A stretch of 11,631 nucleotides of DNA from an uncultured Pseudomonadota bacterium. GTDB lineage: Bacteria > Myxococcota_A > Polyangia > Fen-1088. Both the position numbers and the translations under genes were made by a program. This document shows, piece after piece, positions 1-11,481 of this stretch (its first letter is position 1; each line of letters opens with the position of its first letter). The stretch covers positions 1-11,631 of the forward strand of contig CAWKBC010000022.1 of assembly GCA_963847705.1 (NCBI GenBank), written 5' to 3'. Below the pieces are notes generated by a model. That model was given only the letters and a program-made list of their open reading frames with translations, searched no databases and was not told the DNA's origin.

Positions 1-1072
1 CGAGGGCCTCGAGCCGGGCGCCGAAGGCCCGGCCGAGATCGCCGGTGGCGGGGACGTCGTCGGGCCAGACCAGCGAGCGGCGGGTGCGGGCCGCCGCGGT
101 GATCACCACCGCCAGCTCGAGCCCCAGCTCCGGCCCGACCCCCACGTGGGCCGGGCGCGCCGCCCGGGCCCGCTCGGGATCCACGCCGTAGAGCACGTCC
201 AACCAGACCAGATGCGCCAGGAATCGAAGCGCGAAGGCGACGCTCTCCTCGGAGGCCGGCAGACCGAACGGTGGATCGTGCATCCCGGCAAAACGGTAGA
301 GCGCGCCGGCCAGCGCGTCGCCCGCGCGATCGACGCCGATCTCGACGGCGGCGCCGGCGACCGCCCGGGCCACCGGCGGAAAACGGAGCACCGGGAGAAT
401 GCGCCCCCAGCCGAGCGGCGGATCGAGCCGCAGCGGATCGAGCGCCTCCCCGAGGGGGCTGGCGACGTTGAGCGCCAGGAAGGCCCGGCGCCCGACCGCG
501 GGGATCCCGATCTCGCGCAGCCAGCTGCGGCTGGCCCGCTCGACCCGCACCCGCCGCAGCGACGGCAGCGCCATGATCCGCCCGGGCGGCGTCCGGCCCA
601 CGAAGGTCCGGTGCCCCAGCCAGAAGCGCACCGTCCGGTCGACGCGAACGATCTCCGGAATCCGGGCCAGCAACGAATGGCGGTTCACCGCCTCCCGCGC
701 CGACGACGGCGCGCCGACCGACGCGAGCTCCAGCGCCGCCAGCGCAATCTGCTCCTGCCGGCGGGCGATCCCCGGGCCCGCCAGGTCGGGGTGGGCCAGC
801 GCCAGCAGGTCGTGCAGCGCCGCGCCGAGGCGCACCGTCACCTCGTCGAGCGGAGGCGCCGCGCCGGCCGGAAGGTGGCGCCCCGCGACCAGGCGGCGGC
901 CGGCACCGAGCATGACGATCGGTTCGGCCTCGTCGTCGGTGGGATCGCCACTGGCGCGCTCCACCGCCTCCAGCACCCGGGCCACGGCCCGTGGTCCGAG
1001 CGGCCGGCCGACGCGCAGCACCCCGCCCCGCACGAGCGGCAACAGAAACTCAAGGACGAATCGGCGCGCCAT
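1..1072 (-). CDS. Uncharacterised protein, 3' end outside the window (>357 aa); possible FtsH ternary conflict-system component (X6-like)
   Basis: Not in the ORF track because it runs off the edge. Manual translation from ATG 1072 is open to position 1: MARRFVLEFLLPLVRGGVLRVGRPLG...LGAALHDLLALAHPDL...EAVNRHSLLARIPEIVRVDRTVRFWLG...SPLGEALDPLRL...FALRFLAHLVWLD. Third positions are GC-rich. It starts 41 bp after the upstream stop. The family call is recalled resemblance only. Confidence 0.8.
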   Translation of the reverse strand, partial: MARRFVLEFLLPLVRGGVLRVGRPLGPRAVARVLEAVERASGDPTDDEAEPIVMLGAGRRLVAGRHLPAGAAPPLDEVTVRLGAALHDLLALAHPDLAGPGIARRQEQIALAALELASVGAPSSAREAVNRHSLLARIPEIVRVDRTVRFWLGHRTFVGRTPPGRIMALPSLRRVRVERASRSWLREIGIPAVGRRAFLALNVASPLGEALDPLRLDPPLGWGRILPVLRFPPVARAVAGAAVEIGVDRAGDALAGALYRFAGMHDPPFGLPASEESVAFALRFLAHLVWLDVLYGVDPERARAARPAHVGVGPELGLELAVVITAAARTRRSLVWPDDVPATGDLGRAFGARLEAL

Positions 1073-1075
1073 CGA

Positions 1076-1111
1076 TGGTTGTCTGGGTTGTCCGGGTTGT
1101 CCGGGTCGTCC
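1076..1111. repeat. Four imperfect tandem copies of a 9-bp unit (minus strand GGACGACCC GGACAACCC GGACAACCC AGACAACCA)
   Basis: Read directly: + strand tggttgtct gggttgtcc gggttgtcc gggtcgtcc, filling most of the 41-bp intergenic gap. Confidence 0.85.
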
Positions 1112-1113
1112 GG

Positions 1114-2626
1114 TCAGCGCGGCCGCGCCAGGCCCCAGAGGGGCATCGGCCCGAGCGGCTGGTTCTCGATCTCGACCGGCTCGTCCGGCTCACGCGCCGC
1201 CCGCCCGACCGACTCCAGGTTGGCCAGCGCCGGCTCGATCTCGACCAGGAGGCGGCGATCGAAGGGGACGATCGCCTCCGGAAGAATCCGCACCGGCGGC
1301 ACGTTGAGGTCGGGGAACAGCACCATGGCGCCGGCCGTGGCCCCCAGGCGCTCCGCCAGGACCTGCGGCGATGCCGCCGGGCGGATCTGCGTGCCGAGGG
1401 GAACCAGCACCTCGGGCGCACCGAGCTGGTACAGCGTCCCGAACGGGATCCCGTCGAGCACCTCGGCCGCCCGCAAGAGGACGCCGCGCTTGAGCAGAAC
1501 GACCCGGTAGGCGCGAAGCGCCGCCGGAGGCAGGGCGTAGACGAGCCGCTGCAACCAGACGACCTGGCCCCAGGGGATGAGGGTGGCGACCGGCGGACGC
1601 GCGTCGCCGGCCTGCTCCAATCGAAGCGCGACGGCCAAATCGGGGCGCCCCGCCGGGGCGGCCTCGCGGCGGTCGACGATCTCCGGCGACGGCGCCCGGA
1701 TCCGGATCAGGTCCTCGATCGCCGCAAACGCCGGCAGCGGCGCCACCTCGGTCACGCCGCGCGAGGCGAAGAGATGGAGGCGATCCGCCGCGAAGCTGGC
1801 CCGACAGGCCTCGAGGTGGATCGGGTGCCGATAGCCGACGGCCACCGCCACGTTGTCGGTGACCGGCAGGTAGAGCTGCAGACCCGGCGTGGTCGACAGC
1901 AGCTGGTAGAGCCGCGGCGGCAGTCGCTCGATCCGGAAGATCCAGAACGACGCGCCCGACGAGAACGCGCTCGGGGCGGCGCTCTCGCAGAGGGCGGCCG
2001 TCGCGTGCATCGTCTCTGCGCCGTCGCGCAGATAGCCCGCCGCGCGGTGGAGGATGCCGGCCACCACCGTGCCCAGTCCCCGGCGGGCCGTCACGTAGAT
2101 CGCCCCCTCGGGCAGCTTCGACGCGCGCCCGTGCAGCCGAACCAGCGACAGGCGCAGGAGAAGATTGCCGAGCGGCAGCTCGCTCTCGATCCGGTAGGGG
2201 ACGGTCTCTTCGAGACCGTAGAAGATCAGAATCGCCCCCCCCGTCGCTGAGCGTCTCCACGTCGTAGCCGAGCGGCGCGCGGGTCTCGCGAAACTGCACG
2301 AAGTGCTTCCCCGCCCCGGTGAAGACCTGTCCGCCCGCCAGACGCGCCGCCTGCGCGACGGCGTCACCCAGCGCCTGCGCCGCCGGCATGAGGACGATCG
2401 CCTCGCGGGTCCCCGCGCCGCCGCGTCCGTAGACGATCCGAAAGCCGGGCTGCAGATCATCGAGGCTCTGCTCGGCCGAGAGCAGCCGCAGAAAGGACAC
2501 CAGCCGGTCGACGGCGGCGAAGCGGACGACGAGCTGCCGGCCGATCGCCGCCCCGCGCAGGTCGGAGGTCAGACCCGGCAGGTTGAACCGAGCCTGCCCG
2601 ACCGCGATCCGCTGGAGCATCCACAT
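1114..2626 (-). CDS. Uncharacterised ~503-aa protein split by a 1-nt insertion at ~2230-2242 (frameshifted gene or sequencing error); resembles FtsH ternary system X7-type protein
   Basis: ORF 1190..2626 is protein-like only to ...FTGAGKHFVQFRETRAPLGYDVETLSDGGGD. ORF 1114..2460 is protein-like only from (I)LIFYGLEE...GYRHPIHLEAC...LVYALPP...IPFGTLY...PLGPMPLWGL. Deleting one base joins them into 504 codons including the stop. The family call is from memory of similar myxobacterial proteins. Confidence 0.75.
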
Positions 2627-2635
2627 AGTTTAGCT

Positions 2636-2656
2636 CGGAACCCTCAAAGGGTTCCG
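2636..2656. promoter_or_regulatory. Perfect 9-bp inverted repeat CGGAACCCT-caa-AGGGTTCCG (GGAAC-N9-GTTCC), candidate operator or hairpin
   Basis: Seen in the 126-bp divergent intergenic region, 9 nt upstream of ATG 2626. Function is inferred. Confidence 0.45.
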
Positions 2657-2675
2657 GGCCTCCCGCGACGGGCTC

Positions 2676-2694
2676 GGGCCGGCAAAGCCGGCCC
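2676..2694. promoter_or_regulatory. Perfect 8-bp inverted repeat GGGCCGGC-aaa-GCCGGCCC in the divergent promoter region
   Basis: Read directly. It is all G/C, so a chance occurrence is possible. Confidence 0.3.
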
Positions 2695-2752
2695 TCCCCC
2701 ACGCGATCGGCTACTCGCCGCCTGGCCGCGCCGCGGATGTTAGGATCGGGGG

Positions 2753-3973
2753 GTGACGTCTCGCGATTCGCGGCCGCCGCTCGATCCGTCACTGACGATC
2801 CTGGGTGGGCGCGATCTGGTCGCGCTGGTGGGACGTCTGGTGCGCGAACGATCGTGGGACACGCTGACCACGCTGTTCAAGGCGCTGGGCGGTGACGGGG
2901 GGATCGCACCCGCGGCGCTTGGCGAGCTGGACACGGCCGCGCGGCTGCTGGGCGAAGGGCTGGCGGCGGTCCCGCCACCCCGGAATCCGCGTGGCGTGCA
3001 GGCTGATGAGCTGCGCGCCGTGGCTCTGGCAGCGGCCGACGCGCTGCTCGGCCGTTGCGCCCACCCACCGCTGGCAGAGATCGAGCGGCGGGCGCTCGAT
3101 CGGGCCGCCGGGCTGCTCGCGCGCGGCGGCGATCACCGCCGCGCCGCGCTGACCTACGAGGAGCTGGGGGCCGACGAGCAAGCGGCCGAGGCCTGGGGCG
3201 CCATGGGCGATCTCGATCGGATGGAGGCCGCCCACGAGCGCGACGCCCGCCGGACCGCCACGCATCGTTCTGCCGGGCAGCTCTTGCATCAGTTCGAGGC
3301 GCTGCTCGCCGGGGGGGAACGGATGCGGGCGCTGGCCTTGGTCGCGGCAGCGTCGGGCCTGGAGGACGCCGCCTCGTTGCGGCTGCGCGCCGCGGCCATC
3401 GAGCGCCGACTCTGCCACGGCGCCGCCGTCAGCTTGCGCGCGCCCGGCGGAGCCTGGGTGCGGGTCGCTCCGCTGCCGGCCGAGCTCGGCCGCGATCCGA
3501 CCAGTGCAATCCCCCTGCGCGATCCGGCGGTCTCCCGCCGGCATGCGCTCCTGCGCGTCGAGGGGGACGACGTCGTCATCGCGGACCTCGGCTCGCGCAC
3601 CGGCGTGCGCCTCGGGAGCGCCCGCCTCGAGCCCGGTGCCGCCCTCCCCCTGCGCGGCAGCGGCACGATCGCCCTCGGCGCGACGACGGTGCTGCAGTTT
3701 GAGGCCACCGGCCGCCTGGTGCTGTTCGAGGGGACGAGCGGGCTCGATCGCGGCCTGCGAGCGCTGGTCGGCGAAGCGCCGCTGCCGGTCGCGGCACTGC
3801 TTCCCGGCACCGAGGGGCTGGCCCTGGAGATCGCCGGCAATCTGGTCCGTTTGCAGCGCCGCCCCACCGTCGCGGTGCGCGTCGACGGGCATCTCATCGG
3901 TCCCGAGTGCGATCTCCTGCACGGAGACGTCGTCGAGGTCGTGGGATCGGGCGCGCGGGTGGAGGTCGAATGA
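2753..3973 (+). CDS. FHA domain-containing protein with a helical/TPR-like N-terminal region (406 aa)
   Basis: FHA motifs LGRD...DPAVSRRHA...DLGSRTGVRL from ~3485. The C-terminal VRVDGHLIGPECDLLHGDVVEV resembles a second, degenerate FHA end. AALTYEELGADEQAAEAWGAMGDLDRM is TPR-like. GTG start, exact position uncertain. Confidence 0.85.
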   Translation: MTSRDSRPPLDPSLTILGGRDLVALVGRLVRERSWDTLTTLFKALGGDGGIAPAALGELDTAARLLGEGLAAVPPPRNPRGVQADELRAVALAAADALLGRCAHPPLAEIERRALDRAAGLLARGGDHRRAALTYEELGADEQAAEAWGAMGDLDRMEAAHERDARRTATHRSAGQLLHQFEALLAGGERMRALALVAAASGLEDAASLRLRAAAIERRLCHGAAVSLRAPGGAWVRVAPLPAELGRDPTSAIPLRDPAVSRRHALLRVEGDDVVIADLGSRTGVRLGSARLEPGAALPLRGSGTIALGATTVLQFEATGRLVLFEGTSGLDRGLRALVGEAPLPVAALLPGTEGLALEIAGNLVRLQRRPTVAVRVDGHLIGPECDLLHGDVVEVVGSGARVEVE

Positions 3974-5250
3974 ACGAACGTGACGAGCTGGCCGACGCCG
4001 ATCGCGCGGAGCGGGCGGGCGATCCGATCGGCGCCGCGCTGGCGCTGCGCCGTCACCTCGAGCGCCATGCCGGCGACGGCGTCGCGCGCCTCCGCTTCGC
4101 GCGCGTGCTCATCGCCGCCGGGGAGCACGCGGCCGCCCGGCAAGCGCTGGCGCCGCTGGAAGCCCAGCTGGAGAGCGCCGGGAAACGACCGGGCGCGGAG
4201 CCCCTCCCGGGGTTGCCGAGCGAGCGCGACGTGGAGCGGGCGCTCGCCGAGCTGGACGAAGTGGACGGCGCCGTCGCCGCGGCGGCGGGACGCTGGGAGC
4301 GGCTCCTGGCGGACGACATCGACGACGCGCAGGCGCGCACCCGCCTCGCCCGGCTCCGTCCGATGGCGCCCTCGCCGCTTCGCCGGGAGAGCGACCGCGG
4401 GGGGACCGCGGAGACGCTGGTCTCGCCCGAGGGGATCGAGACCCTGCGCTACCGCCTGGTGCGCGAGATCGGCCGCGGCGCGACGGCGACGGTCTACCTG
4501 GCGCGGGACGAGGCGCTCGACCTGTCGGTCGCGCTCAAGATCCTGCACCCGCAGCTGGCCGGGACCCGCCGCACGGAGCCGCTGGGACGGTTCCTGGCCG
4601 GCGCGCGCCTGCTGGCCGGGCTGCGACACCCGGGCGTGGTGGCGGTCTACGACGTCGACGAGCCGGCGCGCGCGCTGGCCATGGAATGGATCGCGGGCGG
4701 CACGCTGCGCGCGCGTCTGGCCGCCCACCCGGAGGGGCTTCCGGCCGCCGAGGTGGCGGCGACCGCGCACGGGCTCCTCTCCACCTTGGCGTTTCTGCAC
4801 GCACAGGGGATCGTCCACGGCGATCTCAAGCCATCGAACCTCCTCCTGCGGGCCCCCGGCGAGGTGGTGCTGGCCGACTTCGGCGGCGCCGTCCAGCTCG
4901 ACCGCGAAGCCAAGGCGGCGCGTCTGGGCGAGGCGGGCGGGACGCCGCTCTACCTGGCGCCGGAGCAGTTTCAGGGCGCCCCGGCCTCGAGAGAGACAGA
5001 CCTCTACGCGGCGGGCGCGATCCTCTGGGAGGCCGCCACCGGGCACGCGCTGCGGAGCCACGCGGACCTCCTCCAGCGCGGCCGGCCGGCGGATGAAGGC
5101 GCCTCCGGCCTGGCGCCGCGGGCGGAGGCGGTGGCGCAGCTGCGCGCCCGCGCCCCCGCGTCAGCCGAGACTATTTTGGCTCTTCTTGATCCGACCCCGT
5201 CGACAAGGTGCCGCCAGCCGGCCTGGGCGGTGGGGCCGAATAGAGATTGA
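3970..5250 (+). CDS. Hanks-type Ser/Thr protein kinase with N-terminal TPR-like region, soluble (426 aa)
   Basis: Motifs IGRGATATVYLA, VALKIL, HGDLKPSN, DFG, GTPLYLAPE, DLYAAG, LLDPTPSTR. ATG 3970 overlaps the FHA gene stop (ATGA) with GGAGG at 3961-3965, so the track start at 3907 is too early. Confidence 0.92.
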   Translation: MNERDELADADRAERAGDPIGAALALRRHLERHAGDGVARLRFARVLIAAGEHAAARQALAPLEAQLESAGKRPGAEPLPGLPSERDVERALAELDEVDGAVAAAAGRWERLLADDIDDAQARTRLARLRPMAPSPLRRESDRGGTAETLVSPEGIETLRYRLVREIGRGATATVYLARDEALDLSVALKILHPQLAGTRRTEPLGRFLAGARLLAGLRHPGVVAVYDVDEPARALAMEWIAGGTLRARLAAHPEGLPAAEVAATAHGLLSTLAFLHAQGIVHGDLKPSNLLLRAPGEVVLADFGGAVQLDREAKAARLGEAGGTPLYLAPEQFQGAPASRETDLYAAGAILWEAATGHALRSHADLLQRGRPADEGASGLAPRAEAVAQLRARAPASAETILALLDPTPSTRCRQPAWAVGPNRD

Positions 5251-6862
5251 ACTGCAGCGCGAAGTTGACGTCGGTGACGAGACCGAAGGTCGGCACCCCG
5301 GCGATCTCGTTGAGCTCGACGACCAGCGAGACCGACTTGGCCGCCTCGTAGTAGAGGCCGCCGACCGCGCCGACGAGGAGGGGGCCGGCGACGATGGTGT
5401 CCTTGAAGTCGGCGTAGCCGTTGGTGGCGCCGGTATCGGGATAGCCCAGGAAGCGGAAGTTGCCGCCGCCCGCCAGGGGCCCGATGTAGAACCGGAGCTG
5501 CGACTGCTTCGTGTAGAAGAGCAGCTTGGCCATGACGCCAATGGCGCCCTTGTAGGTGAAGTCGGCGTACTTCGAGGCCGGCGCGGTGTACTGCAGCCGC
5601 CCAGCCACGGAGAGCGCCATCCCGGGATTGAAGGCGTAGCCAATCTCCGGCTCCAGCTGGCCGATTCCGGCCCAGGCGAGGCCCGGTTTGAACTGGCTCT
5701 GCAACGAATGGAAGGGGTCCTGGGGCAGCGACCTGTTGACCGCCTCGAACCCGTTCCCCTTGGCGTAGCCGTAGCCGGTCCCGATGCCGATCCCGATCCA
5801 CCACTTGCGCTTGCCGTACCGGGTGTCGAGACCCTCGCGCTCCTTGTCGACGTGCCCGAGGCGGATGCGCGGCCGCTGGTTCCCCTCGTTCTCCTCCAGC
5901 GGGTTCTCGTCCTCTTCACCGATCGGCGCCTTCGACGCCTCGCCCTGCGCCTCCTCCTCGACGACGAGCACGATGTTCGGGCTGTCGGCGCCGCCGTTGG
6001 CGACCACCGGCTTGCCGGCGGCGTTGCGCCCCTCGAAGTAGAACTGGATCGATTTCCCGGTGACCGCCTTCTTGGGGATCTTGGCCTGGAGCCACCCCTT
6101 GGGGCTCTTGGTCATGAGGACCTCGTTGTACTCGTCCCCGCCGGGCGCGCGGTACATCAGGTAGACGCTGGCCACCGGCAGGCTGGGGGCCACCACGCAG
6201 CGGACGGTGAGCGGCTTGTCGATGATCGCTTCGTCCGGTTCCGGACAGTCGAGCGCGCCGACGTGGGCCGGCAGATCGGGCTCCTCGTCGCCGCTCGCGT
6301 GGTGCTTCTTCGGCTTGGCGTCCGACGAGGCGACATCCCCCTCCATGACCGGACCGCGGCGCTTCTTCTTGGGCGGCGGCGGTGCGTTGTCGTCCTCACC
6401 CCCGCCGCTGGCGGACGAACCGCCGCCGCGCGCCCCCCGCTGCGCCTCGGCGAAGGTCGCCGTCACCTCCGCCGTTTCGATCCCCTTCGAGAGCTGGATC
6501 GTCGGGTCGATCTCCAACGCGCGCGAAAAGCTCTGCAGCCCGTGCTGGTGGTCGTGGAAGCCGGTGATGTAGACGGCGCCCAGGTGGATGTAGGTGCGCC
6601 CCATGACCGGGTGGTTGTCGAGCCCGGCCTTCTTCCCCGCTGCCAGCGCGGCGAGCAGGACCCCCTTGGCGGCGTCGAAGTCGAGCGTGTCGTAGTCGTC
6701 GAGCGCCTTCTTGTTCATCTGAACGAGCTTGTCGACGGCGGCCTGGTCCTGCGCCATCGCCGCGCGGGGCGAAAGCGTCAGGGCGCCCGCGATCGCAAGC
6801 ACGATGGCGAGCGAGGAAGCGCGCGAGAGCGAGAGCAAAGCGATGTGCGAGGAGCGGATCAT
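5171..6862 (-). CDS. Exported/outer-membrane protein: signal peptide, TPR-like helical domain, low-complexity linker, Ig-like beta domain, probable C-terminal beta-barrel (563 aa)
   Basis: Signal peptide ending AMA-Q. GRTYIHLGAVY...FSRALEIDP is TPR-like. Amphipathic Gly/aromatic strands (WWIGIGIGTGYG, EIGYAF, VGGLYYE, VNFALQFNLY). AGGA lies upstream of ATG 6862. Confidence 0.8.
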   Translation of the reverse strand: MIRSSHIALLSLSRASSLAIVLAIAGALTLSPRAAMAQDQAAVDKLVQMNKKALDDYDTLDFDAAKGVLLAALAAGKKAGLDNHPVMGRTYIHLGAVYITGFHDHQHGLQSFSRALEIDPTIQLSKGIETAEVTATFAEAQRGARGGGSSASGGGEDDNAPPPPKKKRRGPVMEGDVASSDAKPKKHHASGDEEPDLPAHVGALDCPEPDEAIIDKPLTVRCVVAPSLPVASVYLMYRAPGGDEYNEVLMTKSPKGWLQAKIPKKAVTGKSIQFYFEGRNAAGKPVVANGGADSPNIVLVVEEEAQGEASKAPIGEEDENPLEENEGNQRPRIRLGHVDKEREGLDTRYGKRKWWIGIGIGTGYGYAKGNGFEAVNRSLPQDPFHSLQSQFKPGLAWAGIGQLEPEIGYAFNPGMALSVAGRLQYTAPASKYADFTYKGAIGVMAKLLFYTKQSQLRFYIGPLAGGGNFRFLGYPDTGATNGYADFKDTIVAGPLLVGAVGGLYYEAAKSVSLVVELNEIAGVPTFGLVTDVNFALQFNLYSAPPPRPAGGTLSTGSDQEEPK

Positions 6863-6896
6863 TGCTTCGTCCTTTTATTACTTTTGCTGCGTGGCT

Positions 6897-7982
6897 TTAT
6901 TGCTGCGTGATGAAGAATTCCACACGCCGATTCTTTTCCCGCCCCGCGGCCGTCTTGTTGGTCTCGATCGGCTGGTCGGGCCCGTACCCCTTCGCCTCCA
7001 TCCGGGACATGTCGACGCCCAGTCCCACCAAATGTTGCCGCACGGACTCAGCGCGGCTCTGGGAGAGCTGCATGTTGTGATCGTGCTTGCCGCGGGAGTC
7101 GGTGTGCCCCTCGATCCGCACCGTCATGGTGGCGCGTGACTTGAGCACGCTGGCGATCTCCTCGAGCAGCGGGAAGCTGCGGGCCTGGATGCTCGCCTTG
7201 TTGGTGTCGAAGAAGATCTTCTGTTTGAGCTCGATCTTCTCCTGGGTGACCACGATGTGCTCGTACTTCTTGGGGCAGCCGTCGTTGTCGGGCGGGCCCG
7301 GATCGTTGGGGCACTTGTCGGCGGCGTCGAGGACGCCGTCCTTGTCGTTGTCCGGATCGGGGCAGCCGTCGGCGTCCTCGAACCCGTCCTTGTCCTCCGG
7401 CTCCATCGGGCACTTGTCGACGTTGTCGAGGATGCCGTCGGCGTCGTTGTCGGGATCGGGGCAGCCGTCGGCGTCCTCGAACCCGTCCTTGTCCTCCGGC
7501 TCCATCGGACACTTGTCGGTCTTGTCCGGGATGCCGTCCTTGTCGTTGTCCGGATCGGGGCAGCCGTCGGCGTCCTCGAACCCGTCCTTGTCCTCCGGCT
7601 CCGTGGGGCACTTGTCGGTCTTGTCCGGGATGCCGTCGCCGTCGCTGTCGGGCGGCACCACCGGCCCCACGCACTTGTCCCGCGGCGACAGACGATAGGC
7701 CTCGCGCGCGTTGTGATCGGCGACGTGCAGGTGGTCGCGGGCCCGGAAGTAGTCCCCCTGGGCCAGCTCCCGCTCGGTGAACTCGAGGTGCGTATCGGCG
7801 AGCGCCAGCTCGCGGGGCGCGCACTTGTAGGCGCCGTTGTCACGCGCCTCCTTGGCGATGGTGCGCACCTCGTGGACGCTGTTCTCCATCTCCGTGCCGG
7901 CGCAGCCCGCCAGGAAGATCGCGCCGAGCGCGGCCGTCATGAGGACGGCCGCCGTGAACGACGTCTTCACGCGGGCGCTCAC
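6897..7982 (-). CDS. OmpA-family lipoprotein with a DUF4398-like helical domain and thrombospondin type 3 Ca2+-binding repeats (361 aa)
   Basis: GTG 7982 overlaps the upstream TGA (GTGA). Lipobox FLAGC. Repeats DxDxDGIxDxxDKCPxEPEDKDGFEDADGCP. OmpA C-terminal motifs IFFDTNKASI, IEGHTDSRG, NMQLSQSRAESVR, GREKNRRVEF. Confidence 0.93.
   Translation of the reverse strand: MSARVKTSFTAAVLMTAALGAIFLAGCAGTEMENSVHEVRTIAKEARDNGAYKCAPRELALADTHLEFTERELAQGDYFRARDHLHVADHNAREAYRLSPRDKCVGPVVPPDSDGDGIPDKTDKCPTEPEDKDGFEDADGCPDPDNDKDGIPDKTDKCPMEPEDKDGFEDADGCPDPDNDADGILDNVDKCPMEPEDKDGFEDADGCPDPDNDKDGVLDAADKCPNDPGPPDNDGCPKKYEHIVVTQEKIELKQKIFFDTNKASIQARSFPLLEEIASVLKSRATMTVRIEGHTDSRGKHDHNMQLSQSRAESVRQHLVGLGVDMSRMEAKGYGPDQPIETNKTAAGREKNRRVEFFITQQ
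7272..7649 (-). repeat. Coding tandem repeat: three 99-bp units plus an 81-bp variant unit (TSP3 repeats)
   Basis: Near-identical 33-aa units. The block ggatcggggcagccgtcggcgtcctcgaacccgtccttgtcctccggctcc recurs three times at 99-bp spacing. Confidence 0.9.
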
Positions 7983-8401
7983 TCGGGCGCCTTCTGGTCT
8001 CTGGCGGCCGCCCCGGCGGAATCCTCGGTACCCGCGCCCGGCTCCTCGTTCTGTGTCTTCGGAACGTAGGTGGCCGCGGCGCTCTCCTTGGCCATCCGCT
8101 CCACGGTGATGGCCCGCGCGCGGTTCGCCAAATCCTCCGCCTTGCGCCCGTACTCGATGGCGTCCTGGTATTCCGCGTGCGCTGCCTCTTCGCGCGCCTT
8201 GTGCAGATACTCCTCGGCAGCGGTGTACTCGTACGGGGCGTAGCGCTCTGCCGAGGCCAGCTTGGCCGCCGACACCGCGGACGCGGCCTTGTTGCCGACC
8301 TGGTTGATGTACTCGACGGGGCCACAGCCCCACAACGACACCAGGAGCGGCGCCAACATTAGAACCAATCTTCCCGTCGGAAGGGTGCGGACCCGGCGCA
8401 A
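7979..8401 (-). CDS. DUF4398-like small helical lipoprotein
   Basis: Lipobox LWGC, then AVSAAKLASAERYAPYEYTAAEEYLHKAREE...YQDAIEYGRKA, typical of DUF4398 proteins encoded before OmpA genes. Start is TTG 8401 (gives a basic n-region) or ATG 8359. The track start at 8578 lies upstream of the predicted promoter. Confidence 0.85.
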   Translation of the reverse strand: MRRVRTLPTGRLVLMLAPLLVSLWGCGPVEYINQVGNKAASAVSAAKLASAERYAPYEYTAAEEYLHKAREEAAHAEYQDAIEYGRKAEDLANRARAITVERMAKESAAATYVPKTQNEEPGAGTEDSAGAAARDQKAPE

Positions 8402-8410
8402 TTCGGCCCG

Positions 8411-8439
8411 ACGGTAGCAACTGCCGCGCGCCCGGTCAA
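8411..8439 (-). promoter_or_regulatory. Sigma70-type promoter TTGACC-17bp-TACCGT with extended -10 (TGn), driving the envelope operon
   Basis: The minus strand reads TTGACC gggcgcgcggcagttgc TACCGT; -35 at 8439-8434, -10 at 8416-8411. Confidence 0.6.
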
Positions 8440-8457
8440 TCGCGCGAACGGAGGGCG

Positions 8458-8480
8458 CGGGAACGGCCCCAGGGTTCCCG
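8458..8480. promoter_or_regulatory. Inverted repeat CGGGAAC-N9-GTTCCCG, candidate operator between divergent genes
   Basis: Same GGAAC-N9-GTTCC geometry as 2637-2655. Followed by a -10-like TAGAAT at 8483-8488 on the + strand. Confidence 0.4.
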
Positions 8481-8579
8481 ATTAGAATTCTCCGCACGTC
8501 TTGCGCGGGGAGTTTATCCGCGATATGAGCGAAGCCTGCATTTTTCCTGGACGCGAACGACCCCCACGGAGGTATCACG

Positions 8580-8834
8580 GTGAAACAACTGATCGCCTAT
8601 CTTTTAGATCACGCGATAATCGATTTCTCAGGCGATCTCACCCTGGACATGGTGCGGGATTTCTTGCGTGAAGACGATAGCCCCGAAGGACGGAAGCTGC
8701 TCGGCAAGCTGGTCGAGGACCGGGGCGTCGACGACATGGTCGTCACCCTCGCCGACTGCCTGCAGGACTACCTCCGCACCGGCATCACGGACGACGTCGT
8801 CCGCGAGCAGATCCGCCTTTACAGCGAGAGTTAG
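8580..8834 (+). CDS. Small acidic helical protein of unknown function (84 aa)
   Basis: Strong SD GGAGGT (8568-8573) 6 nt before GTG 8580. Composition is protein-like (MKQLIAYLLDHAIIDFSGDLTLDMVRDFLREDDS...VVREQIRLYSES), unlike the GC-rich shadow ORFs. Confidence 0.85.
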   Translation: MKQLIAYLLDHAIIDFSGDLTLDMVRDFLREDDSPEGRKLLGKLVEDRGVDDMVVTLADCLQDYLRTGITDDVVREQIRLYSES

Positions 8835-8835
8835 C

Positions 8836-9642
8836 CGCAAGTTCGGGGACCCTGAGCGGGTCCCCGCGGCGACGTTTTTCCTGTTCGCCCTGCTGGCTGC
8901 CGCGGGGTGCAACAGCTACCCGACCGACGCCACCCCTTATCCGGGGCTCTGCCCGAAGATGTATGTGGCCAACTGGTCGCCGGCGGAGGGGGCGCTGGAC
9001 GTGCCGGTCGACGCGACCATCAAGGTCACCTTCTCCGACTACCCCGACCCCGACACGGTCGGCGAGCCCAGCATGCTGCTGACGACCGGGGTCTTCCGTC
9101 TCCCCGAGACCTACCGGGTCGACCTCGCCGACAAGGCGGTGGTGATGACGCCCAACGGGGTTCTGGACACCGATCTCGGCTACACCGTGACGGTCATGCA
9201 GAACGTCGCCTCGCTGGCCGGCTGCTCCGGCCCGACCACGGGGATAGAGTTCACCACCGGGGAGCACGCCTCCAACCTGCTGCCCCCGCCCGCCCCGTCG
9301 TTGGCCAGCGTGCAGGCCATCTTCAACGCCAGCTGCGCCAGCGGCTGCCACCTCGATCCTTCCGGGGGCTGCCTGGCCGCCCCGTTCGGCGGCCTCTCGC
9401 TCTGCGCCGCCCAGGCGCGCGACTCCCTGGTCGAGGTCCCCTCTCGCGAGGTGAGCTCCCTCGCTCTGGTGGCGCCACTTGACTCGGCGCGTAGCTATCT
9501 CCTCCGCAAGCTGCTGCCGGCCACCGCGGGCGGCGGGCCGATCCCCGGAACGCTCGGAGAGCGGGAACCTCCCGGGCCACCGCTGCCCGCCGACCAACTT
9601 CTGACCATCGCAGCCTGGATCGACGGTGGCGCCCTCCCTTAA
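8836..9642 (+). CDS. Probable lipoprotein: Ig-like (Big_5/SbsA-type) domain plus c-type-cytochrome-like domain (CX3CH); 5' end undefined
   Basis: FFLFALLAAAGC lipobox (Cys 8908). WSPAEGALDVPVDATIKVTFS...YTVTV...IEFTTG is Ig-like. VQAIFNASCASGCH...SYLLRKL...IAAWIDGGA is cytochrome-like. In-frame canonical starts occur only at GTG 8668 and ATG 8959; the start given here is a placeholder just after the upstream stop. Confidence 0.75.
   Translation, partial: RKFGDPERVPAATFFLFALLAAAGCNSYPTDATPYPGLCPKMYVANWSPAEGALDVPVDATIKVTFSDYPDPDTVGEPSMLLTTGVFRLPETYRVDLADKAVVMTPNGVLDTDLGYTVTVMQNVASLAGCSGPTTGIEFTTGEHASNLLPPPAPSLASVQAIFNASCASGCHLDPSGGCLAAPFGGLSLCAAQARDSLVEVPSREVSSLALVAPLDSARSYLLRKLLPATAGGGPIPGTLGEREPPGPPLPADQLLTIAAWIDGGALP
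8844..8879 (+). terminator. Hairpin CGGGGACCC-tgagc-GGGTCCCCG with a downstream T5 run; possible terminator or REP-like palindrome
   Basis: Perfect 9-bp stem (8844-8866) 9 nt after TAG 8834. The T run (8875-8879) is 8 nt from the stem, which is not canonical. Confidence 0.4.
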
Positions 9643-9721
9643 GATCGGCGAACGTAAAGGGGACCACCTGCGGGCCCGGGGGTTTAACGTCCCGCGCCGA
9701 AACCGTCGATGAGAGCCGCCG

Positions 9722-11392
9722 ATGTCCACCCGTGAGCCCGTCCAACCCCAGCTGAAGCCTGGGGTTGCGGCGACGACCATGTTTGGTCGTTACAAGTTGC
9801 TCGGGCGGATCGGCGAAGGGGGCATGGCCGAGGTCTTCCGCGCGCTCATGACCGGCCCGGAGGGGTTCGAGCGCGAGCTGGTCCTGAAGCGGATCCTCCC
9901 CCGCCTGTCCCAGACGGGCGACTTCAAGACCATGTTCATCCGGGAGGCGAAGATCTCGGCGCTGCTCCTGCACCCGAACATCGTGCAGATCTACGAGTTC
10001 GGCGAGGCGGAGGGGGCCTACTTCATCGCCATGGAGAACGTACAGGGGGTGACCCTGCGCGAGGCGCTCACCACGCTCCGCCGCGAGCAGCGCGCGATGC
10101 CCTACCTGGTCGCCGCCGACATCGCCCGGCAGATCTGCATCGGGCTCGACTACGCCCACACGCTGCACGGACCCGACGGCAAGGCGCTGGAGATCGTCCA
10201 CCAGGACATCTCGCCCACCAACATCATGCTCGCCTACACCGGCACGGTGAAGATCCTCGACTTCGGGATCGCGCGCGCCGCCTCGTTCGCCGAGGAGGAG
10301 GCCAAAAAGGGGCTCATCAAGGGGAAGGTGAGCTATCTGTCGCCCGAGCAGATCCACGTGCGGCCGTTTGATTCCCGCGCCGACGTGTTCGCGCTGGGGG
10401 TCGTGTTTCACGAGATGCTGACCGGGCGGCGGCTGTTCCAGGCGAAGAACGACATCGGCAAGATGCGGCAGCTGCTGGCGGCGCCGATCGCGCCGCCGTC
10501 CTCGCTGAACGCGACCATCCCGCGCGAGCTCGATCGGATCGTGATGCGCGCGCTGTCGATCGACGTCAACCAGCGGTTTCAGTCGGTCGCCGACATGGCG
10601 AGCGACCTCGAGCGCACGCTGATCGCCGCCCGCTACTCCAGCCGGGAGCTGTCGAAGCTGCTGCACGGGCTGTTTCTCCCCGACGAGGATCCGGTCGTGG
10701 TGGTCGACACCGACGACCACCGGACGTTGGCCATGACCGGGGGGACGACCGGCAGCTCGTCCGGCAACAGCGGGGTGGGGGGCAGCGGGCCGACGGCGAC
10801 CGGGACGTCGGGCGCGCGCACCCCGAGCCTGCGCGCGACGTCGCCCTCGATGTCGACGTCGACGTCGACGTCGTTGTCGGCGTCGCACACCACGCCGGGC
10901 TCGCCCGGAGCGCGCCCGACCCAATCAGGCAGGCGCCCCACTTCACCCTCCGACGCCCTCACCAATCCGCTCCCGCCCATCCCCGAGGCATCCGAGCTGC
11001 TTCCATCCGACTCGGGCGCGCAGCGCCTCGAACGGGTGGTGCAGGCGGAGCGGGGCCGCCTGGCCCGCAAGCGGATGCGGGGCAAGCTCCGGGTTTTCGC
11101 GGTGATCGCCGGCATCTGCGTCGGCCTGGCCGTCGTCGCGGGCGCCGGCCTCTGGGCCTGGCGCCGGTACGAATCGGTGCTGTTCCCTCCGCCCCCCCCT
11201 CCGCCCAAGCCCCCCGCGGCGGCTCCGCTTCCGGCCCCGACCGCGCCCGAGACGGCGGCCAAGCCGAAGAAGCCCCGACCTCCGCACCACAAGGGTTCGC
11301 ACGCGACCTCGCCCTCCGCCGACACCCCGTCCGGCCCAACGGCGCCCAGCAACGAGCCGCTCGCCCCCTCGGACGACCAGCAAAAACCGTAG
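9722..11392 (+). CDS. Membrane-anchored Hanks-type Ser/Thr protein kinase (556 aa)
   Basis: Motifs IGEGGMAEVFRA, LVLKRI, MFIREAKI, HPNIVQIYE, HQDISPTN, VKILDFGIA, KGKVSYLSPEQ, DVFALG. Ser/Thr/Gly/Pro linker, TM helix at ~11093-11161 after a basic stretch, short Pro-rich tail. Confidence 0.95.
   Translation: MSTREPVQPQLKPGVAATTMFGRYKLLGRIGEGGMAEVFRALMTGPEGFERELVLKRILPRLSQTGDFKTMFIREAKISALLLHPNIVQIYEFGEAEGAYFIAMENVQGVTLREALTTLRREQRAMPYLVAADIARQICIGLDYAHTLHGPDGKALEIVHQDISPTNIMLAYTGTVKILDFGIARAASFAEEEAKKGLIKGKVSYLSPEQIHVRPFDSRADVFALGVVFHEMLTGRRLFQAKNDIGKMRQLLAAPIAPPSSLNATIPRELDRIVMRALSIDVNQRFQSVADMASDLERTLIAARYSSRELSKLLHGLFLPDEDPVVVVDTDDHRTLAMTGGTTGSSSGNSGVGGSGPTATGTSGARTPSLRATSPSMSTSTSTSLSASHTTPGSPGARPTQSGRRPTSPSDALTNPLPPIPEASELLPSDSGAQRLERVVQAERGRLARKRMRGKLRVFAVIAGICVGLAVVAGAGLWAWRRYESVLFPPPPPPPKPPAAAPLPAPTAPETAAKPKKPRPPHHKGSHATSPSADTPSGPTAPSNEPLAPSDDQQKP
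10847..10882. repeat. Hexamer tandem repeat (TCGACG)3 with degenerate flanks, encoding SMSTSTSTSLSA in the kinase linker
   Basis: tcgatg tcgacg tcgacg tcgacg tcgttg tcggcg, read directly. Confidence 0.6.
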
Positions 11393-11404
11393 CCTCTTCC
11401 AGGA

Positions 11405-11481
11405 TGCGAGCGATGCCCGGCTCGGCCGGGCGCAGCGAGGGGGGCCCGGGGGAGTGCGAGCGGCAGCGAGCCACTCCCCGG
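11405..11481. repeat. Double-hairpin REP-like element between convergent genes; may act as a terminator or mRNA stabiliser
   Basis: GCCCGGC-tcg-GCCGGGC (11415-11431). GGGGAGTG (11449-11456) pairs with CACTCCCC (11472-11479). Internal repeats of tGCGAGCG and GCAGCGAG. No U-tract. Confidence 0.5.

Follow-up and report, generated by a model that had tools for sequence, protein, structure and literature searches.

A seven-gene MoxR-vWA module with a kinase/FHA pair in Polyangia, related to the FtsH and beta-propeller ternary systems

Contig CAWKBC010000022.1 (C22; 11,631 nucleotides, the whole of which is referred to here as the window) belongs to the 6.1-Mb, 84.7% complete assembly of an uncultured bacterium of the class Polyangia (genome label G000). 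Four genes occupy positions 1–5250: gene A, gene B, a gene for a TPR-like protein with an FHA domain, and a gene for a TPR protein with a kinase domain. Comparison with related genomes suggested that these four belong, with a MoxR ATPase, a vWA protein, and a TPR/HEAT protein, to a seven-gene module, a genuine and apparently new form of MoxR-vWA ternary system. The seven genes seem to be kept or lost together in Polyangia, and we propose with moderate confidence that they encode a Ser/Thr phosphorylation-gated, cytoplasmic, ATP-driven remodelling machine. In the counts below, “class” means Polyangia and “genus” means the genus of the source genome.

The gene layout agreed with a preliminary description of this DNA, which had recognized two co-oriented genes on the minus strand (2620/2626 to 1114, gene A, and 1072 to the contig end, gene B) and an FHA gene and a kinase gene on the plus strand that overlap at ATGA (3970–3973). 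The same description gave the gap between the two pairs as 126 bp, which holds when it is counted to the first ATG and becomes 132 bp if the ATG used by the orthologues is taken. A crude scan of the orthologues from three loci detected no hydrophobic 19-mer above 1.9. Genes A and B are 41 bp apart here owing to a 9-bp tandem repeat, GGTTGTCCG, of about four units (1077–1112); in most relatives read, the gap is <20 bp.

Gene A had been described as fvmX7-like, and this was supported by profile comparisons. Two of the 26 A proteins found in our phylum sample passed the fvmX7 Pfam cut-off (E 1.2e-10 and 6.5e-6), and an alignment of A proteins matched the N-terminal third of seven canonical fvmX7 proteins of ~1050 aa (HHalign 97.1%, 324 columns), which identifies gene A as a true fvmX7 homologue. 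The window's own copy had no direct fvmX7 match; direct Pfam and NCBIfam scans of the window's A and B returned a weak bpX2 match alone (E 0.007), and a weak bpX2 match was present in 22 of the 26 A proteins (best E 1e-5). The structural model of A (pLDDT 77) predicts tandem ferredoxin-like alpha/beta domains followed by a free C-terminal tail. A fold search with A gave nothing significant and barely covered its C-terminal half, the best match being the C-terminal domain of YpbH/MecA (Z 6.1; root-mean-square deviation [rmsd] 3.6; 90 aligned), which is generically ferredoxin-like. The last 30 residues of A were modelled with low confidence in the monomer, yet they are conserved: 29 of 43 loci matched a loosely defined tail pattern, and several others carry visibly diverged versions. 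To our knowledge, MoxR-vWA ternary systems are largely predictions, and we know of no partner or role for fvmX7.

ATPase and vWA genes had been expected to the left of the window as parts of an FtsH-type system. This expectation was correct for the MoxR AAA+ and vWA genes, which lie downstream of A and B in the relatives, and incorrect for FtsH, for which no profile match was found in 98 loci. The operon order was A-B-MoxR-methyltransferase-(DUF6789)-vWA-TPR/HEAT in all 14 genus loci read. Outside the genus, 10 genomes from other families also kept all five core genes together; in one of these genomes, the genes were reordered with an extra 573-aa gene. No contig overlapping the left end of C22 was found among the assembly's other contigs. 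In this genome, the 3′ half of the TPR/HEAT gene (residues 291–599, 94% identity) is found at one end of contig C15, so that the MoxR and vWA genes lie in an assembly gap. The MoxR proteins of the relatives belong to the bpMoxR clade (E 1e-71 to 1e-77), and all 16 compared carry GPPGTAKS and an intact Walker B motif, FLDE(I/V)FK. Among the vWA proteins, 15 of 16 keep a DxSxSM-type motif. Their direct Pfam matches were below the cut-off, and when compared together with their N-terminal helical region, they aligned with canonical ivWA proteins (HHalign 97.8%, 295 columns). They are 465–510 aa long and, in 11 of 11 aligned, end just past the vWA domain.

Additional genes were observed around the operon. 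A methyltransferase gene and a DUF6789-like membrane gene lie between MoxR and vWA in the genus (L033:10412-12207); they were seen only in the genus loci read and were treated as inserts. In four genomes from other families, a receiver-domain gene occurs between MoxR and vWA or next to the vWA gene. Throughout the genus, the end of the operon faces two convergent genes, one of the PLD family and one encoding a giant cysteine-rich repeat protein (C15/L055; L033:15863-19901).

The distribution of the module was examined in a phylum sample of 250 genomes, 48 in the class and 202 outside it, and in an earlier draw of 24 genus and 16 other class genomes. In the earlier draw, gene B was present in 24/24 genus genomes and 6/16 other class genomes. 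In the phylum sample, A and B occurred in the same 26 genomes (24/48 in the class, 2/202 outside), and both were single-copy in 25 of them. The exception, G280, carries the entire seven-gene locus twice in nearly identical form (C20, C14; L071, L073), which reflects either duplication or mixed strains. An orthologous vWA protein was found in 25 of the 26 genomes, five weak partial matches elsewhere being set aside, and a full-length TPR-FHA protein in 23 of the 26 and in none of the other 224. In this search, the TPR part of the FHA protein matched 62 genomes, 23 of them over nearly the full length; the other 39 gave short TPR-like matches, which were disregarded. The TPR-kinase gene adjoins the FHA gene or is one gene away in 18 of these 23 genomes; of the other five, two have the locus truncated at a contig end, and three lack such a gene nearby. 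Of the 24 genus genomes, 21 have the kinase/FHA pair head-to-head with gene A; outside the genus, this was seen in G031, G032, G034, G280 (with three genes inserted), and G099, which belongs to another class. This arrangement therefore spans six families and two classes, and its other flanking genes differ.

Gene B has 595 representative homologues at E ≤0.001, and no Pfam match was found among 19 B members. Its model is helical and confident (pLDDT 87); a fold search gave no significant match (best Z 6.2, rmsd 5.0, 169 aligned), and the Atlas gave nothing usable. The suggestion that B is fvmX6-like was not borne out (HHalign 0.1% against five proteins in the fvmX6 position; 0/19 members match). 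The possibility that B is a detached C-terminal region of the long fvmX7 protein (1050 aa) was also rejected (HHalign 0.7%). The protein is rich in invariant Arg, His, and Trp residues. A shorter B of about 297 aa, which has lost the C-terminal helices, occurs in family f7 and in G099 (L085, L089, L095).

When A and B from one relative were co-folded using 35-row alignments, the score was 0.76, whereas the best of three controls scored 0.00; the score mark used was reached by 116 of 157 solved pairs and 2 of 215 mismatched pairs. The runs shared at least 66% of contacts, and the partner pLDDT was at least 77. The confident interface places residues 479–498 of A on residues 12–29, 90–112, 137–144, 158–161, and 184 of B, and positions of B that are ≥75% conserved made up 12 of 36 interface positions against 27 of 351 elsewhere (124 sequences). 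No comparable solved complex appeared in the fold searches. The conserved C-terminal tail of A is thus predicted to dock on a conserved groove of B, giving an A-B complex. The coordinates of these and the other features of the window are shown in Table 1.

Table 1. Positions of the features of the window (contig C22)
Feature	Position	Strand	Description
Gene B	1..1072	-	~387 aa, mostly helical, no named family, cut by contig end
Gene A	1114..2620	-	~501 aa, fvmX7/bpX2-related; apparent +1 frameshift near 2230
Conserved C-terminal tail of A (…EIENQPLGPMPLWG…)	1126..1185	-	Predicted docking on protein B
Extra base, GATTCTG context	2229..2232	-	Very probably a systematic long-read consensus error
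REP-like ~78-bp palindromic repeat, two hairpins	2633..2710	.	Recent insertion, bystander
TPR-like helical region + FHA gene	2753..3973	+	FHA domain 3485-3679, Pfam FHA E 9.6e-12
TPR + soluble Hanks-type kinase gene	3970..5250	+	Kinase 4450-5064, Pkinase E 2.6e-35

In the remodelling machine that we propose, the flexible tail of A would bind the groove of B, and a MoxR hexamer, with the vWA protein as adaptor, would assemble or dismantle an A-B-TPR/HEAT complex, by analogy with NorQ-NorD. The TPR-kinase may act on itself or on one of the subunits, and the resulting phospho-mark may be read by the TPR-FHA protein, which would set a threshold, so that the kinase/FHA pair could act as a phospho-switch. 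The output would be signalling, or a stress or threat response, and not direct killing, as in the Actinomycetota pathway Esr. A signalling output is favoured because Esr, the only tested set of MoxR, vWA, kinase, and FHA proteins that was found, is a pathway for sensing threats (PMC13622651).

The proteins of the phospho arm retain part of the expected motifs. The glutamate of the alphaC helix and the asparagine of the FHA domain are canonical residues of kinase and FHA domains, respectively. In the window, the FHA domain keeps GR and SxxH, and the canonical Asn is replaced by Thr. The kinase has an N-terminal TPR_19 match (residues 16–66, E 5e-4), VALK, HGDLKPSN, DFG, and APE, and its alphaC Glu is replaced by Gly; a conserved Thr lies in the kinase linker (ETLVS at 4411).

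Several observations weigh against the proposed machine. Losses of both residues recur in the genus: none of the 14 legible genus sequences has the FHA Asn, which 19 of 23 sequences outside the genus keep, and of 15 genus kinase sequences, 11 have Gly at the alphaC position, 1 has Asp, and 3 have Glu, which is kept in the legible kinase sequences outside the genus. Activity of the pair in this organism is therefore doubtful, and the phospho arm of the genus may have drifted towards a scaffold role. The MoxR and vWA genes are missing from this assembly, G227 has no vWA match, and three genomes with A, B, and vWA have no TPR-FHA match. No sensor or output domain was identified in the module. The co-occurrence is also overstated, because kin are not independent and the class negatives are mostly smaller genomes. 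Finally, of the 23 phylum-draw genomes with both gene A and the pair, 19 do not have them side by side, and 10 of these 19 have the pair beside pilB of the type IVa pilus. The synteny of the FHA/kinase pair, which the preliminary description had put forward as a check, holds as linkage across families and as co-occurrence with the operon, and not in most phylum-draw genomes.

The pair might instead be an independent two-gene module, whose nearness to the MoxR-vWA operon is a remnant of ancestral gene order. It is unlinked in most genomes outside the genus, and within the genus the whole neighbourhood, including OmpA, is syntenic, both of which are consistent with this explanation. However, leftover synteny accounts poorly for a head-to-head arrangement that recurs in six families and two classes with differing other flanks, and independence accounts poorly for the absence of full-length TPR-FHA from all 224 genomes without A and B. 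We therefore consider this explanation very unlikely.

The pilB linkage bears on another alternative, in which the module serves a housekeeping function as the assembly chaperone of a cellular machine specific to Polyangia, used in motility, predation, or development, the kinase and FHA proteins timing assembly with no threat role. In loci L163, L165-L171, L174, and L175, from 10 genomes of three families (f7, f15, and f20), the TPR-FHA gene either stands head-to-head with pilB or lies near it, and pilT often comes next. The single-copy, vertical-looking pattern in 24/48 class genomes also fits a housekeeping role, as does the maturation of enzymes by MoxR-vWA pairs (PMC9976466). Against this, the pilB linkage is limited to related families, the best matches in this genome to that PilB and to PilT are 41% and 36% identical, and the closest homologues of the module sit in predicted conflict systems. 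We regard a purely housekeeping chaperone as unlikely, and a functional link to type IVa pili is left as a lead only.

A role in conflict or defence, which the preliminary description had put forward for the locus, received no direct support; the module is near single-copy and inherited lineage-wide without effectors. In its strongest form, this proposal would make the module a genuine conflict system, as Kaur et al. (2020) use the term, directed against invaders (phages or epibionts), with MoxR-vWA setting a threshold and B, or A-B, acting as an unrecognised effector released on phosphorylation. Three parts are homologous to those of the FtsH ternary system (A to fvmX7, vWA to ivWA, with the alignments given above, and the bpMoxR ATPase), B has its many invariant Arg, His, and Trp residues and no recognised fold, and Esr offers a precedent for defence by sets of this composition. 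Nevertheless, the copy number, the presence in every genus genome, the housekeeping-type neighbours, and the retention of the module even after its genes scatter are unlike a classical defence island. No recurrent variable effector was found in the loci clustered, and neither NEFF1, a radical SAM/peptide set, nor a Ubl-caspase set was a recurrent neighbour by clustering and spot annotation, which did not annotate every flanking open reading frame. The within-genus identities of the module proteins (67–90%) resemble those of bystander genes (67–80%), and the conserved residues of B are partly explained by the predicted A-binding groove. An anti-invader system is therefore doubtful, and a conserved signalling or remodelling machine, near single-copy and without a variable effector, fits better than a phage-defence island.

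The palindrome between the two gene pairs had been noted as a possible shared element. The inverted repeat at 2633–2659 is part of the ~78-bp element, which has 108 further BLAST matches on 26 other contigs of this genome, often in tandem, and is absent from the same intergenic region in the two closest relatives (G001 and G021). Because it is a genome-wide repeat that these relatives lack at this site, it is not a locus-specific operator, and the idea of a shared operator was rejected. A second, different repeat family occurs after the valS-like gene (11402–11480; about seven further matches).

The reading frame of gene A in the window is interrupted near position 2230. Programmed frameshifting or gene fission was considered because G001 and G021 carry the identical extra base in the same GATTCTG context, and it was rejected: the closest proteins, 94–98% identical to A, read through intact; in short-read contigs of close relatives, three of four runs lack one base at 2230/2231, the fourth barely covering the site; and the motif behaves similarly genome-wide. 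Of 205 scorable GATTCTG sites in this genome, a +1 codon-phase shift was found at 34 and a +2 shift at 14, compared with 112 of 4328 GATCTG sites and 2–10% for control motifs. Eleven of the 34 +1 shifts fall at GATTCTGA, where no +2 shift occurs, and a further frameshift in G001 also has the GATTCTG context. A scan of metagenomes for the frameshifted 21-mer gave one match, which was unrelated. A slip in a G homopolymer was also rejected, G001 and G021 being without the run. We conclude that the frameshift is very probably a systematic GATCTG-to-GATTCTG sequencing error. The +1 shifts at GATTCTG probably arise from base-calling errors at a modified GATC context, and this error likely breaks dozens of genes in silico in this genome. 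In this group, a “frameshift” that several long-read genomes have in common can thus be an artefact.

The rest of the window (5171–11392) contains a convergent gene for an exported TPR-like protein, which overlaps the 3′ end of the kinase gene by 80 bp, and genes for an OmpA protein with TSP3 repeats, a DUF4398 lipoprotein, a Big_5 lipoprotein, and a membrane kinase. A small, highly conserved open reading frame of 84 aa lies at 8580–8834. The flank as far as Big_5, OmpA included, is syntenic in the genus loci.

A full-text search found no published description of the seven-gene set; it did not cover Figure 1-source data 1 of PMC7159879, which may list such loci. The FtsH and beta-propeller MoxR-vWA ternary subsystems are defined in sections 21 and 22 of the same paper (Kaur et al. 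2020). The present module resembles the FtsH ternary system of the simple type (Pfam fvmX7, ivWA, ivWA-helical_N, bpMoxR) in having a bpMoxR-clade ATPase with a GxxxTAKS P-loop, a vWA domain fused to an N-terminal helical region, and an fvmX7-like protein upstream of MoxR. It differs in that FtsH, fvmX6, and fvmX5 were not found with it, fvmX7 stands alone (~500 aa) instead of heading a ~1050-aa protein, the vWA domain retains DxSxS, and B and the TPR/HEAT, TPR-FHA, and TPR-kinase proteins are added. FtsH and fvmX6 profiles had no match in 98 loci, although in G227 a single FtsH-like gene lies 9 kb away from a gene A that stands alone. In the source genome, the FtsH-like matches are 31–36% identical and lie on other contigs, and PF20004 had no match; PF20003 matched none of four genus genomes and did match the positive control, G285. 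Of the 250 phylum genomes, 9 contain canonical systems with fvmX6, and four of these 9 also have the present module, at a separate locus. With no FtsH in the operon and with B not fvmX6, the module is therefore a sister of the FtsH ternary systems and not a member. Its likeness to the beta-propeller ternary system (Pfam bpX2, bpX3) lies in the same MoxR clade, the weak bpX2 match, and the lack of a conventional effector; unlike that system, its vWA protein has no beta-propeller and ends after the vWA domain, and there is no membrane-anchored variable third component. By the definitions given in that paper, the module is a sister of both subsystems and a member of neither.

Two systems that have been characterized further offer functional parallels. 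NorQ-NorD combines an AAA+ ring with a vWA adaptor (PMC9976466), and the present module has the same pairing with intact motifs; no redox-enzyme genes are linked to the module. Esr is described as an experimentally tested epibiont-sensing pathway of Actinomycetota, in which MoxR, vWA, a Ser/Thr kinase, and an FHA protein are proposed to form a single signalling route, and it shows that such sets can defend (PMC13622651). The same four components are present here. Esr also has a surface beta-propeller sensor, a transglutaminase, a phosphatase, and an Esx linkage; no Esr-type sensor, transglutaminase, phosphatase, or Esx linkage was seen among the seven genes or their recurrent neighbours, unlinked copies lying outside this search. 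The parts of the module all look cytoplasmic, and the likeness to Esr noted here is one of composition. We tentatively raise the possibility that this FtsH-less, effector-less MoxR-vWA subsystem is a core kinase-gated, cytoplasmic threat- or contact-sensing machine of one myxobacterial class, a Gram-negative counterpart of Esr, with the fvmX7 tail latched on B in an A-B complex that MoxR would release upon phosphorylation. The module is compact, soluble-looking, and near single-copy, with seven tractable proteins and one specific predicted contact, that of the A tail on B; because it is present in 24/48 sampled class genomes, knockouts could distinguish between a defence role and everyday remodelling.

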